Shown: positions 11,453-17,793 of the stretch, one piece after another
How positions within the stretch are numbered: the stretch's first letter is position 1
Layout of the letters: each line of letters opens with the position of its first letter
Origin: Candidatus Baldrarchaeum yapensis
Lineage (GTDB): Archaea > Asgardarchaeota > Baldrarchaeia > Baldrarchaeales > Baldrarchaeaceae
Assembly (NCBI GenBank): GCA_016840465.1
Contig: JAEOSH010000012.1
Location: 1-32,000 of the forward strand
Length of the DNA: 32,000 nt
Direction: 5' to 3'
Translations under genes and position numbers: made by a program
The notes under the pieces: generated by a model
Database searches by the model: none
Seen by the model: only the letters and a program-made list of their open reading frames with translations
What the model was told of the DNA's origin: nothing

Positions 11453-11965
11453 TCAGACAAAACCACTTCTACCAAAGCGCTGCGGCCGGGACGGCCATAA
11501 TATGCTTCTGGCCTCACTTATATCCTCTTTGGCAACACCGAATCCTATCACCACGAGGGTTCTGAATTTTCTGCGCAATTCTGCGACGTGTGGCCAGTAA
11601 ATGTAAGGAGGCAGATCCGCGTCCATGTACCTTGAAAAGGGTAACTCGGTATTTCCTAGTAGCTTATGGATTGTGAACTGTTCGAGCTTCCCTCCTGCTA
11701 TTGTAAACACGCCCTTACCTAAATCAAGCCTACGGACAACCACAAATGGCAAGCGCAACATTTTATGAAAACGATCGGGCACGAACTCGGCCAACTTCCT
11801 TATCTCGTCCCTATCCAGCGAGTAGTGCGAACCATCTCTCGCGACAATATTTGGACTATCTTCTTTTAGCAATTCTTCGAGAGTTTTATAGGCTCTTGGC
11901 AGATGGTCGTTTATTTTTTCTATCTCGAACTTCCAAAGAACCCTTAATACCTTATCCACTATCAC
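11453..11965 (-). CDS. DUF61 (UPF0216) family protein
   Basis: EKINDHLPRAYKTLEELLKE...RDGSHY...LRLPF pattern; GTG start with GAGGTG SD. Confidence 0.75.
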   Translation of the reverse strand: MIVDKVLRVLWKFEIEKINDHLPRAYKTLEELLKEDSPNIVARDGSHYSLDRDEIRKLAEFVPDRFHKMLRLPFVVVRRLDLGKGVFTIAGGKLEQFTIHKLLGNTELPFSRYMDADLPPYIYWPHVAELRRKFRTLVVIGFGVAKEDISEARSILWPSRPQRFGRSGFV

Positions 11966-12060
11966 AAGAATTGCACCTCAAAATTCCAAATATTTATGAT
12001 TCGGGTAAAAGCCTTGCTAACATAACCGGAGCAGAGAAGACCGTGAGCATGGTGTCGATT

Positions 12061-13146
12061 ATGCGGGAAGATATACTGAAGACATTAATTGCAATATCCT
12101 CAAAGGCGGAGAAAAAGGGGAATGTGCCCCGCAAGGTATCTGCAAGTAGCGTATATAATATTATTAACGCAATATATAAGTTAAAATCAGCCGAATTCTG
12201 GCATATCGTGAAAGAATCCGGAGAATACACACTTGATGCATTCAAAATTCTTCTAGCCCTTATGGAGGAGAACTTTGTAAAGCGTATCGGAAGAGAGTTC
12301 ACTTTATCTACAAAGGGAAAACAAGCCGCCGAGTCAATAGGTTTAGTTGCAAAATCTGCAAAATGCAATATGTGCACCGGAAAGACCATTATAATTGACA
12401 TTTTATCGGAAATAAGAGACGAATTTGAAAAAATATGCAGTAAAAGACCAAGATTAAAGGTTGAATATGATCAAGCACCAATACTCCCGTCAGATGCATT
12501 ATCAAGAGTTGCATTCATGATAGAACGAGGTGACGTTTCTGGAAAAGATATAATAGTCTTGGGAGACGACGACCTTGTGAGTGTTGCCTTAGCGTTGACC
12601 GAGTTGCCAAACAGAATTGTTGTTTTGGACATAGACGAAGAGTTGATAAAATTCATCCGAGAACATCTGAGTACAGCATCGATTAAGGCTGAGGCCTTAA
12701 CATATGACCTGCGATATCCGTTGCCAGATGACCTAAGGGATTCCTTCGATGTATTCTTTACAGATCCCCCCGATACAACGTTGGGGCTTATTCTCTTCTT
12801 GTCAAGAGGAGCTGAGGCCCTGATAAAAGAGGAAAAGGTGCGGGCATGTGGCTATTTCTGCATGACACATGCGGATGCGCCGATCGATCGGTGGTACAAG
12901 ATTGAGAAGACACTTTTGGAAATGGGCTTCGTAATAACCGATATAATTCGTGACTTCAATACGTACTACGACCTTAGCGTCGAGACGGAGGATTATATAA
13001 AGGAGGGAATTCTGGAAAAAATTCCTCCACCAACCAAACCATGGTATGTAAGCTCATTGATTAGAATTGAGGGACACGGGAAAATAAGTCCAGCAATAAA
13101 GGGAACATTCTTTGATGAAAAGGTCTACGATTATCTTCACTGGTGA
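12061..13146 (+). CDS. bpsA: Branched-chain polyamine synthase A, N4-bis(aminopropyl)spermidine synthase
   Basis: KCNMCTGK, RPRLKVEYDQA, RGDVSGKDIIVLGDDDLVSVALAL, FDVFFTDPP and GFVITDIIRDFNTY, collinear with Thermococcus BpsA as recalled. Start at ATG 12049 or 12061, not 11746. Confidence 0.92.
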   Translation: MREDILKTLIAISSKAEKKGNVPRKVSASSVYNIINAIYKLKSAEFWHIVKESGEYTLDAFKILLALMEENFVKRIGREFTLSTKGKQAAESIGLVAKSAKCNMCTGKTIIIDILSEIRDEFEKICSKRPRLKVEYDQAPILPSDALSRVAFMIERGDVSGKDIIVLGDDDLVSVALALTELPNRIVVLDIDEELIKFIREHLSTASIKAEALTYDLRYPLPDDLRDSFDVFFTDPPDTTLGLILFLSRGAEALIKEEKVRACGYFCMTHADAPIDRWYKIEKTLLEMGFVITDIIRDFNTYYDLSVETEDYIKEGILEKIPPPTKPWYVSSLIRIEGHGKISPAIKGTFFDEKVYDYLHW

Positions 13147-14516: not shown

Positions 14517-15449
14517 TCATACTGGAATCTCTATAGGCTTCTCATCCGTGGATACCGGAACATCAGTACGCTTTAACGCCATTAAAATGTCCTTAGGGAG
14601 TACGAATAACGCCTCATGGAGTTCCGGAGAATAATATTCGGTGTAAACACCCCTCTCTTCGAATCTTTTCTTTATAAGATCTTTACTTATACTTCTAGGG
14701 TCTATATGATCTGAAGCAATTATAAACATCCAATAGAGCCCAAAGGATGGAATCCATGCCCCATAAGGCCTGACTATCGAAAAAACCTCCGATAATGTCT
14801 TATAAATCGCAACAAACTCTCTCTGATATACGTATGGGCTCTCACTATGGGTAGTCACGATTCCATTTGAATTAAGTCTCGATTTTATTAATTTATAGAA
14901 CTCAACGGTGTACAGACGGGCTGACTGTCCCGAAGGATCTGTCAAGTCCAGAATTACCACATCAAACTTGTCATTAGTCCTCTCGACGAATCTTCGCCCA
15001 TCCTCTATAAAAATACTCACTCTTTCGTCGTTAAATGCATCCTTATGAACCTCTTTCAAGTATTTTTTCGAAATTTCTATTATTTCCTTGTCCAGATCTA
15101 CAAGAACAACCTCCTTCACGACGTTGTGCTTAAGAACCTCCTCTAATGCCCCTCCATCTCCTCCCCCAATTATTAACACCTTTTCCGGTCTGGGATGGGA
15201 AAAGAGGGATGGATGAACGAGACTCTCGTGGTAAATGTACTCATCGAAAGTCGATAATTGCACCTTTCCATCTATTAGGAGCATTTTGCCAAAGTCTGGA
15301 GATTCGACAATTTCCACTCGCTGATATTTCGTGGTGCCGGAAAATATCACTCTATTTATCTGTACCAGTCGTGAGAGACTCCTAGTGAGCCGCTCATGAT
15401 AAAGCATGCCACCAATGTCGATCGATGATGAAGAGGGCATATCTGCCAC
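14517..15449 (-). CDS. speE: Polyamine aminopropyltransferase (spermidine synthase family)
   Basis: TKYQRVEIV, LLIDGKVQ, DEYIYHESLVHP, VLIIGGGDGGAL, IEDGRRF and DVVILDLTDP. Start GTG 15449 or ATG 15440. Confidence 0.95.
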   Translation of the reverse strand: MADMPSSSSIDIGGMLYHERLTRSLSRLVQINRVIFSGTTKYQRVEIVESPDFGKMLLIDGKVQLSTFDEYIYHESLVHPSLFSHPRPEKVLIIGGGDGGALEEVLKHNVVKEVVLVDLDKEIIEISKKYLKEVHKDAFNDERVSIFIEDGRRFVERTNDKFDVVILDLTDPSGQSARLYTVEFYKLIKSRLNSNGIVTTHSESPYVYQREFVAIYKTLSEVFSIVRPYGAWIPSFGLYWMFIIASDHIDPRSISKDLIKKRFEERGVYTEYYSPELHEALFVLPKDILMALKRTDVPVSTDEKPIEIPV

Positions 15450-15842
15450 CTATCTCTGAAGTGCTGATATTCGCTCTATGGCGCTTCTCAAGTTTAAACT
15501 TATCAGTCCAATCTGCGAGAGTGCATCCGCTCCGGCATATGCAACTAATATGACATTTCTCCCTCCCGCGATCACAATGTAACCATTCGTCCCCCTTATC
15601 GTTATTTCACGCAATTCTCCTCGCTTGAGTTTTTCGGAGACGGTGGACGAGTGTTCATATATTTTGATTATGGCTTCAGCTGTGGGCTCATATGGGATCC
15701 TTTCGATCCCCTCCGCCGCTATCAATTCTCCAGTATTCGAAACAACAATCATTCCCTCAATTGCTGGAATGATCTTCATGATTTCCCTAAGAATTGCCAA
15801 TATCTGCTCTCTGGCCGCCACACGGTCTTCCTCCTTTGACAT
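15450..15842 (-). CDS. Roadblock/LC7 domain protein (divergent, full-length)
   Basis: IEGMIVVSNTG...GELREITIRGTNGYIVI...IGLI roadblock pattern; stop codon abuts the speE start. Confidence 0.85.
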   Translation of the reverse strand: MSKEEDRVAAREQILAILREIMKIIPAIEGMIVVSNTGELIAAEGIERIPYEPTAEAIIKIYEHSSTVSEKLKRGELREITIRGTNGYIVIAGGRNVILVAYAGADALSQIGLISLNLRSAIERISALQR

Positions 15843-15944
15843 CTATGATCTACATTCTCCTGCCAAGTTTTAATTGTAACGAACACCATAAATTAATTGA
15901 GTAACACAGTTAATATTTGATAACCCCAAGGAGCGTTTTCCCCA

Positions 15945-16229
15945 ATGCTATCCGAGGATGTCATTAAGAGCATTCTTGAGAACCTCGGGAAGATGGAAGG
16001 CGTTAAGGGGGTCGTTATCACAACGACGGAGGGAATTCCGGTACACTCAACATTCCCACCAGATGTAACCGAGAAAATATCCGCATTTGCCGCGTCTCTC
16101 TTAGGAAAAGCTAAAGAGATGATCAAGGAAGTGGGTGGCGCAAAGGTTACCTTTATAACACTAGACACGTCGGAAGGCGAACTCTTAATATCAAGTGAAC
16201 AGGAATATGTGATAGCGATCTTGCGGTAG
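15945..16229 (+). CDS. Short roadblock/LC7 protein, DYNLRB-like (94 aa)
   Basis: GVKGVVITTTEGIPVHST signature; ends after the last beta strand with no C-terminal helix. Confidence 0.88.
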   Translation: MLSEDVIKSILENLGKMEGVKGVVITTTEGIPVHSTFPPDVTEKISAFAASLLGKAKEMIKEVGGAKVTFITLDTSEGELLISSEQEYVIAILR

Positions 16230-16284: not shown

Positions 16285-16752
16285 ATGGAGCCTAATGTCT
16301 TTGAGAAAATACTAACAAGGCTAATAAAGAGCGAAAGCGGAATAAGACGGGCGATCTTAGTCGATAGAACCGGTCTGACTATCGCCCATGCCTCGAAGTT
16401 CTCATCCTATTATCCGATAGACGTGGAGGGAATAGGCGCTATTGCAAGCGCGATTTTCGTTGGCAGTGAGGAGCAGGGCAAGAACCTTGACATAGGAGAC
16501 CTACAAATGGTGATATCAGAGTTCGAGAACGGAAAAATATTCGCAATCAGCTGCGGACAGGGGGTACTTTGCCTAATCACCGATCCGGATGTCAATATAG
16601 GAATGATAAGGTTGCTCATGAAACGAACTGCTGCAGAATTAGGGAAATTGCTGGATGAGTTCCTATCGGCCACCGTCTCGATTCCTGTAGAGGAGAAGAA
16701 GGAGGAAGAGGAAGAACTAAAGGCAGCCCTCGATGCGCTGGAACAATTATAA
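16285..16752 (+). CDS. MglB-like roadblock protein (putative GAP of the adjacent GTPase)
   Basis: AILVDRTG and NIGMIRLLMKRTAAELGKLL resemble MglB; acidic C-terminal helix; directly upstream of the MglA-like gene. ATG 16285 has a GGTGG SD. Confidence 0.8.
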   Translation: MEPNVFEKILTRLIKSESGIRRAILVDRTGLTIAHASKFSSYYPIDVEGIGAIASAIFVGSEEQGKNLDIGDLQMVISEFENGKIFAISCGQGVLCLITDPDVNIGMIRLLMKRTAAELGKLLDEFLSATVSIPVEEKKEEEEELKAALDALEQL

Positions 16753-16767
16753 TGGTGGCCATAAGAC

Positions 16768-17358
16768 ATGCCAAGAGTTGACCCCCAGGGAAGATTACAC
16801 TTTAAAATAGTGTTCTGGGGTCCCTCTTTATCGGGAAAGACGACATCACTTAGGTGGATATACAATAACGTAGAGGGAATAACTAAGGGGAGATTTGTGT
16901 CGATAGAAGATCCGACAGGCAGAACGCTATACTTCGACTACACGCCTGTCTCCATATCGTCAAAAGTCGTGTTCGATCTCTATACAGTCGCGGGGCAAAG
17001 AAGGCACAAAATACAGAGAAGGAAGGTGCTGGAAGGAGTAGATGGAATACTATTCGTAGCAGATTCGGATCCAGCTCAGCTTCAGGAAAATGAAATTAGC
17101 ATGACCGAATTAAGACAACTGCTAGGAGACAAGCTTGGAAGGGAAATACCACTTGTCGTGTTACTAAATAAGCGAGATCTTCCAAATGCCGTGAGTAAGG
17201 AAACCCTCCTCAATGCCCTTAAGATAGTCCCGGTAAATATTCGCGTTTATGAGGGAATCGCGATAAGAGGGATAGGAGTGAAACAGGCTTTCAAAGCGAT
17301 AGTTCGTGAGGTGCTCTGGAACTATTACCAGCGGGCTAAGCAACAGAAGGCACAATGA
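16768..17358 (+). CDS. MglA-family small GTPase
   Basis: KIVFWGPSLSGKTT (G1), GRTLYFDY (switch I), LYTVAGQ (MglA-type G3 with T in place of D), GVDGILFVADS and LNKRDLP (G4). Confidence 0.92.
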   Translation: MPRVDPQGRLHFKIVFWGPSLSGKTTSLRWIYNNVEGITKGRFVSIEDPTGRTLYFDYTPVSISSKVVFDLYTVAGQRRHKIQRRKVLEGVDGILFVADSDPAQLQENEISMTELRQLLGDKLGREIPLVVLLNKRDLPNAVSKETLLNALKIVPVNIRVYEGIAIRGIGVKQAFKAIVREVLWNYYQRAKQQKAQ

Positions 17359-17385: not shown

Positions 17386-17793
17386 ATGTTTATGAAGGTG
17401 ATTGAAGTGAGTGAGGTTGTAGGGGTTGAGCCTCAAACACTATCCAAATTACTAAAGGAGTTTACAATGACAGTCCCAGAAATCGAGGGCGCGGCCCTTG
17501 TCACTGATGAGGGACTACCAATAGTGTCCGTTCTTCCAGAGGGTGTTGATGAAACAAAGATTGCCGCTATGACGGCAGCAATTCTATCTCTTGGAGAACA
17601 AACATCTAAAGAATTAGGGAAGGGGTCTCTAGAGCAGGTTTACATTAAAGGGAAGAACGGTTACATAATAGCGATGGATGCGGGATCGAATGCCGTGTTA
17701 GCCGTCATCGCAAGCAGTGAAGCAAAACTAGGGCTAGTTTTGTTTCGCATGGAGCAGCTTGCTGAGAAGATATCAAAGATAATATCTTTGTAA
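17386..17793 (+). CDS. Roadblock/LC7 domain protein (COG2018 type)
   Basis: EIEGAALVTDEGLPI...IAAMTAAILSLGE...ELGKGSLEQVYIKGKNGY...AKLGLV. Possible true start GTG 17407 (GGTGA SD). Confidence 0.92.
   Translation: MFMKVIEVSEVVGVEPQTLSKLLKEFTMTVPEIEGAALVTDEGLPIVSVLPEGVDETKIAAMTAAILSLGEQTSKELGKGSLEQVYIKGKNGYIIAMDAGSNAVLAVIASSEAKLGLVLFRMEQLAEKISKIISL

Follow-up and report, generated by a model that had tools for sequence, protein, structure and literature searches.

A gene cluster of four roadblock proteins and an MglA-type GTPase around the Baldrarchaeia ortholog of Odin-RBLC7, an archaeal relative of the dynein light chain DYNLRB

Odin-RBLC7 of Odinarchaeota LCB_4 (OLS18093.1, PDB 7F8F) was crystallized as a homodimer without a C-terminal helix (Tran, Akil, Senju and Robinson, 2024, PMC10933270). 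Its structure was solved using a DYNLRB model and is most similar to MglB and DLRB1, and the authors proposed that it binds a helix of a partner, which they left open (PMC10933270). An RLC7 dynein homolog of Lokiarchaeum is also among the entries of a 2016 review (PMC4917890). In eukaryotes, DYNLRB clamps two amphipathic helices of the dynein intermediate chain (PMC10886578), and LAMTOR4 and LAMTOR5 of Ragulator are short roadblocks completed by a LAMTOR1 helix in a GTPase scaffold (PMC10933270). A further related system is the MglA/MglB(/MglC) switch of Myxococcus xanthus and Thermus thermophilus (6IZW, 3T12), in which the C-terminal helix of Myxococcus MglB keeps MglB on MglA-GDP (PMC13408092). 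As for gene order, an Asgard operon of roadblock, small GTPase and DENN genes has been described (Liu et al., bioRxiv 10.1101/2020.10.19.343400). Tran et al. found Asgard GTPases hard to pair with roadblock regulators from gene order, and the GTPase genes of MK-D1 generally lie outside operons with roadblocks (PMC10933270). Since Odin-RBLC7 has been crystallized and a Lokiarchaeum RLC7 listed, the type of protein treated here is already published, and the diverged copy described below adds little by itself. The value lies in its gene cluster, in which one Asgard lineage keeps RBLC7 together with MglA and three further roadblocks, one of them MglB-type.

The RBLC7 gene lies at 15945..16229 (+) of the window, the whole 32,000-nt stretch of Candidatus Baldrarchaeum yapensis DNA that was analysed (contig JAEOSH010000012.1), in a genome of 2.27 Mb that is 96% complete. 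It starts with ATG, stops with TAG and encodes 94 aa; a putative Shine-Dalgarno-like AGGAG (15929..15933, +) is located 11 nt before the ATG, and four independent contigs all carry a gene call of 94 aa. The protein scores 61.3 bits against Pfam Robl_LC7 (PF03259, cut-off 23), and its AlphaFold2 model (pLDDT 89.8) has helices at 4-15 and 39-62 and five strands, in the helix, two strands, helix, three strands order of the Roadblock/LC7 superfamily. The last element of the model is strand E88-93, and no C-terminal helix follows in the model or in the open reading frame, just as the preliminary description, made from the sequence alone, had it. This short form is no truncation, because the C-termini of 34 RBLC7 orthologs lie 0-11 residues past the last strand; the sampled intact non-Asgard roadblocks have 18-39 more residues there.

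RBLC7 is the Baldrarchaeia ortholog of Odin-RBLC7. The Odin protein is its top PDB match (83.4 bits, 94/94 residues, gap-free, 43% identity) and also ranks first by Foldseek for the RBLC7 model. Both are 94 aa long without a C-terminal helix, and three neighbouring genes, called RBup, RB2 and RB3 below, are common to the two loci and stand in the same order. Within its own genome RBLC7 is the best match to the family profile, at 122 bits against 69.5 for a paralog. The family is vertically inherited, mostly single-copy and nearly pan-Asgard, and the present member is an ordinary, rather diverged copy. In 89 columns it shares 21 identities with macaque DYNLRB1, while the family median is 34 and Odin-RBLC7 reaches 39. 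It also has S83-S84 where the family has A-P. Furthermore, MglA lies within the cluster here but elsewhere in Odin genomes, and the cluster goes undescribed in PMC10933270. Against human DYNLRB1 (PDB 1z09), RBLC7 gives E 2e-9 and 40.8 bits. The roughly 18 identities and single one-residue gap that had been counted by eye agree with the 20-21 identities and one gap of the alignments, but "closely resembling" DYNLRB was an overstatement for a copy with 21/89 identities against a median of 34. RBLC7 ranks 32/34 in likeness to DYNLRB, so that this copy is no special link to eukaryotes.

The kinship of the family as a whole to DYNLRB is much clearer. A profile of 29 Asgard orthologs, searched against the PDB, gives DYNLRB1 87 bits and the next prokaryotic chain 41. 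In the reverse direction, a profile of 26 eukaryotic DYNLRB sequences gives 7F8F 88.7 bits and the next prokaryote 28.3. When the DYNLRB profile was run over 251 Asgard genomes, the 150 matches listed scored 66-96 bits, with RBLC7 at 77.9, and 22/28 Asgard families matched at E below about 1e-8. Among about 850 non-Asgard genomes, a sample that leaves out DPANN, Thermoplasmatota, Myxococcota and Actinomycetota, the best score was 42.8 bits. This score came from a set of 151 genomes from the phylum to which a Halobacteriota record belongs. The other sets peaked at 29.7 bits (301 genomes, phylum of a Thermoprotei record), 30.3 (151 Chloroflexota genomes), 26.6 (151 genomes, phylum of Syntrophus) and 29.1 (a further 101 non-Asgard genomes). 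The best non-Asgard matches are long roadblocks. Since the DYNLRB rows had been gathered with the present RBLC7 as query, which may bias them in its favour, the proteins were rescored with a profile of ten canonical DYNLRB rows and, separately, with DYNLRB1 alone. The medians of the Asgard orthologs were 76.6 and 59.8 bits, respectively, against at most 33.0 and 19.9 for named non-Asgard rows and at most 30.2 and 31.4 for unassigned prokaryotic rows; RBLC7 itself scored 56.5 and 42.9, with the rank given above. Thus, of the prokaryotic roadblocks sampled, none is closer kin to DYNLRB than Asgard RBLC7.

The family also groups with DYNLRB by phylogeny. In a tree of 79 rows and 89 columns (LG+C20+F+G4, C-terminal helix excluded, no LAMTOR rows), DYNLRB and all 29 short Asgard roadblocks fall on one side of a branch with support 100/99. 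The eukaryotic DYNLRB rows form a branch of their own (100/99), outside of which RBLC7 lies, and their neighbours in the tree are Loki- and Odin-type rows (97/80, 98/89). Monophyly of the Asgard rows is not rejected by the AU test (p 0.154), and therefore no donor lineage is claimed for DYNLRB: a position nested in the Asgard family and one as its sister both fit the tree. An earlier tree (LG+G4, 110 rows), which still included long branches, joined RBLC7 to a long bacterial branch (90/47) and was set aside; 31 rows, long branches and near-duplicates among them, were removed before the mixture-model tree was made. Placements of single rows are unsure because of this attraction. The preliminary description would have dropped the kinship if the protein did not group with DYNLRB and scored no better against it than other prokaryotic roadblocks. 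The family does group with DYNLRB and far outscores the other prokaryotic roadblocks sampled, and it very probably is either the prokaryotic sister group of eukaryotic DYNLRB or its source.

At the residue level, K55-A56, F70, E79 and Y88 are common to the RBLC7 family and DYNLRB and rare in other roadblocks. The short fold is also shared, with a TM of 0.88 between the RBLC7 model and human DYNLRB2 by Foldseek. The basic strand-3 motif of DYNLRB (R72, R74, K76-K77), however, is missing from RBLC7, as are Y45 and Q94: R72 (100% of 26 rows) and R74 (85%) are replaced by T72 and D74, and Y45 by I. Loki-type orthologs (f9, f23; L166, L167, L173, L189, L190; f and L label families and loci) have Arg at position 72, and most other Asgard orthologs have Thr. 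Searches of the 96% complete genome, made without a positive control, found none of the dynein heavy chain, LC8 and Tctex families. This agrees with the early statement that the protein stands beside a GTPase and without any dynein gene in the window.

That GTPase gene (16768..17358, +) is one of four that accompany RBLC7. It encodes a 196-aa small GTPase of the MglA type by profile (Thermus MglA 170 bits, best Arf 65) that keeps the intrinsic Arg (R52 in RTLYFD) and Gln (Q77 in TVAGQ). Between RBLC7 and MglA lies RB2 (16285..16752, +), a 155-aa MglB-type roadblock; it has a linker, and its C-terminal helix is acidic and amphipathic. Its best PDB match is Myxococcus MglB, it is 53-71% identical across Asgard archaea, and it scores 35 bits against NF052242, below the cut-off. 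RB3 (17386..17793, +), a fourth roadblock recognized by Pfam and in related loci, is of a generic long archaeal type, and its start may be a few codons downstream. RBLC7 opens this co-oriented run of RBLC7, RB2, MglA and RB3. RBup (15450..15842, -), a divergent long roadblock of 130 aa, points away from it at a distance of 102 nt; it forms its own clade (100/96) in the tree and changes fastest in the cluster (25-38% identity). The cluster thus resembles the MglA/MglB switch in that its GTPase and RB2 match MglA and MglB, including the intrinsic Arg and Gln and the C-terminal helix, and RB2 is the predicted partner of the cluster MglA. It differs from the switch in the number of its roadblocks, four different ones where the switch has one or two. 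RBLC7, moreover, is by sequence neither MglB nor MglC: it is not a long roadblock, has no third helix and no NCBIfam MglB match (RB2 has a weak one), and no MglB chain appeared at E<=10 when the PDB was searched with the RBLC7-family or DYNLRB profile. The operon of Liu et al. likewise holds conserved roadblock and small GTPase genes; it differs in its DENN gene, which the RBLC7 cluster lacks, and in the kind of roadblock.

In the 21 Asgard families checked, MglA occurs within the RBLC7 cluster in 14, RB2 is adjacent to RBLC7 in 15 and RBup in 13, and at least one cluster gene stands beside RBLC7 in 20. The counts are not independent, given the shared ancestry of the families, and are presented without a statistical test. 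All five genes occur in the same order in Baldr, Freyr/Jord, Hermod and Thor-type genomes, f15 and f26. The clusters of Atabey and f8 have no RBup and those of Odin and f20 no MglA, and RBLC7 directly precedes MglA in f5, f14 and f25. The Loki-type families f9 and f23 are rearranged, with RBLC7 followed by RBup; their RB2 profile match stops at positions 130-133, before the C-terminal helix. A loss of MglA in Loki was considered and ruled out, as a diverged, unlinked copy was found there (186-195 bits against over 290 elsewhere). In f16 and f19 (12 genomes, 66-91% complete), neither RBLC7 nor RB2 was found, and a more distant MglA is present. A literature search found no paper describing the RBLC7-RB2-MglA-RB3-RBup cluster.

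How might RBLC7 act in this cluster? By the crystal structure of its ortholog, RBLC7 would form a homodimer with a continuous ten-stranded sheet, as do Odin-RBLC7 and DYNLRB. Without the third helix, each subunit would have an open groove, which may take a helix of a partner as DYNLRB takes the intermediate chain; for archaea, this is the proposal of Tran et al. Strand alternation predicts that F70, T72, D74, E79 and Y88 line the groove. Conservation of F70, E79 and Y88 fits a kept binding site, and with T72 and D74 in place of the DYNLRB arginines, the ligand would not simply resemble the intermediate chain. Since the cluster neighbours are conserved, the pathway of RBLC7 would be an MglA/MglB-type switch, in which MglA may have the RB2 dimer as its GAP/GEF-like partner. 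As RB2 would already serve as the MglB, RBLC7 is most simply seen as an accessory, non-catalytic adaptor, which would clamp or position the MglA/RB2 module through the helix of a candidate partner. We lean towards this reading, if only slightly.

Complex models bear on the MglA-RB2 part. The model of MglA on the RB2 dimer, in which MglA also binds RB2 residues 141-155, scored 0.72, against 0.16 for the best of three controls, on a scale whose mark was reached by 58/80 solved pairs and 2/110 mismatched pairs. The runs share at least 86% of contacts, with partner pLDDT at least 86. These models support binding of MglA to the RB2 dimer across the central helices and the C-terminal helix, and likeness to solved MglA-MglB may explain the passing score. 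In a model of two RBLC7, two RB2, MglA and GTP, scored for MglA, no RBLC7 residue lay in the confident interface, and with RB2 replaced the score fell to 0.00. This lends no support to direct binding of RBLC7 to MglA and was counted neither for nor against it. The acidic C-terminal helix of RB2 was considered as a filler of the RBLC7 groove and set aside as less likely: the passing model lays this helix on MglA, the groove residues T72, D74 and E79 are neutral or acidic, and f9 and f23 keep RBLC7 although their RB2 match ends at 130-133.

The adaptor reading has to be weighed against other functions. In f9 and f23, MglA is unlinked and RBLC7 stays with RBup only, Odin-type MglA lies elsewhere, and in f21 a Rab-like GTPase gene is followed, after about 0.8 kb, by two different RBLC7 copies in tandem (L196, L197), all of which speak against a fixed tie to MglA. 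Of these, f9, f23 and f21 suit a heterodimer of RBLC7 with another cluster roadblock, most likely RBup, in a Ragulator-like multi-roadblock scaffold for MglA: RBup is adjacent in 13/21 families, RBLC7 and RBup have become a co-oriented pair in f9 and f23 without RB2 or MglA, and Ragulator (PMC10933270) and axonemal dynein (PMC10886578) provide examples of roadblock heterodimers. The f21 pair itself may be a short-roadblock heterodimer by analogy with axonemal LC7a/LC7b. We nevertheless consider pairing with RBup unlikely, for Odin-RBLC7 is homodimeric in its crystals (PMC10933270), adjacency to RBup is lacking in f5, f8, f13, f14, f17, f21, f25 and f27, and RBup changes faster than the other cluster genes. 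Distinctly unlikely is a second MglB-like platform, in which MglA or another small GTPase would dock straight onto the paired central helices of the RBLC7 homodimer. Small residues do form a conserved flat face on the central helix (E43 and A47 100%, S51 91%, G54 94%), which resembles the A-S-A face of RB2. RBLC7 also directly precedes MglA in three families, its paralogs adjoin GTPases (L175, L176, L197), and DYNLRB1 binds a Rab GTPase, Rab6, in an account within PMC3747258. Yet the MglB features already belong to RB2, which those three families (f5, f14, f25) possess in diverged form, and RBLC7 is retained where the cluster MglA has diverged and moved. Finally, gene order might be an inherited leftover, with RBLC7 clamping a protein of another pathway unrelated to MglA. 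The cluster is broken in f3, f9, f20, f21 and f23, a second f15 copy stands alone, and the main role of eukaryotic DYNLRB is that of a clamp without a GTPase (PMC10886578). We give this little credence, since some cluster gene stays beside RBLC7 through several rearrangements (20/21 families) and the link to MglA recurs in a duplicate pair (L175).

Two further alternatives concern ancestry. The lineage had initially been proposed as possibly ancestral to either DYNLRB or LAMTOR4/5-type roadblocks, of which the DYNLRB part is supported by profiles and tree and the LAMTOR4/5 part is not. RBLC7 passes the Pfam LAMTOR5 cut-off weakly (31.1 bits, cut-off 27), a LAMTOR5 cluster ranks fifth in an Atlas feature search (0.89), and LAMTOR4/5 are likewise short. 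On the other side, the family profile gives LAMTOR5 15-16 and LAMTOR2 18.6 bits against 87 for DYNLRB1, LAMTOR4 is absent from its matches at E<=10, Foldseek places DYNLRB chains from rank 2 and HBXIP/LAMTOR5 at 41-44, and the top three Atlas clusters are DYNLRB. LAMTOR4 and LAMTOR5 are also heterodimeric and serve Rag GTPases rather than MglA. An equal or closer kinship to LAMTOR4/5 is therefore very improbable; LAMTOR4/5 may be a faster-evolving offshoot of the RBLC7 family, which is compatible with those scores. Contamination from a eukaryote, or recent transfer from one, might be suspected from the fact that, after Asgard orthologs, most matches among 1.84 billion proteins are eukaryotic DYNLRB. 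It is refuted for practical purposes: the gene stands among archaeal genes on four independent contigs, orthologs occur in 22/28 Asgard families, closed genomes included, in the same gene order, and RBLC7 lies outside the separate branch (100/99) of the DYNLRB rows.

If RBLC7 is indeed an adaptor of an MglA switch, the cluster could show the role of a dynein subunit before dynein. RBLC7 would have come down from the last Asgard ancestor as a fixed subunit of a four-roadblock MglA switch, and Heimdall-type lineages would have retained it next to MglA; the intermediate chain would later have replaced the groove helix, and binding of DYNLRB1 to Rab6 would be a relic. This scenario is tentative, and we hold it as possible rather than probable. 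It can nevertheless be tested with the five small proteins of the cluster, and if it is true, these five genes are a small set open to reconstitution.

Several other loci deserve mention. In the same genome, a second short roadblock of the family (L176, C30:41579-41962, -) scores 69.5 bits to the family and 50 to DYNLRB, and lies about 400 nt upstream of a co-oriented gene for a 160-aa Arf-like GTPase. L175, its Baldrarchaeum counterpart, faces a duplicate MglA gene in convergent orientation; this MglA has Ala in place of the catalytic Gln, plus an insertion. Another roadblock of the same genome, L178 (C66:20038-20538, +), has at its end an amphipathic, acidic helix that strongly resembles the one in RB2, and may be a second candidate MglB-type regulator. 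A search for fusions found four long proteins with Loki-type RBLC7 domains on contigs of 1.8-5.9 kb. Proline-rich and zinc-ribbon tails are seen in such long proteins (P0228-P0231, P0040), and P0228 has an N-terminal Rab-like domain; these proteins seem to be specific to their lineage or mis-assembled, and no partner can be read from them. In the window, the stop codon of RBup abuts a spermidine synthase open reading frame (14517-15842, -). No speE match lies beside RBup in related loci, whose flanks are short, and the junction looks particular to this lineage. A BpsA-type branched-chain polyamine synthase (PF01861) is encoded at 11746-13146 (+). This enzyme points to a thermophile, and the Asgard lineage of RBLC7 is probably thermophilic.
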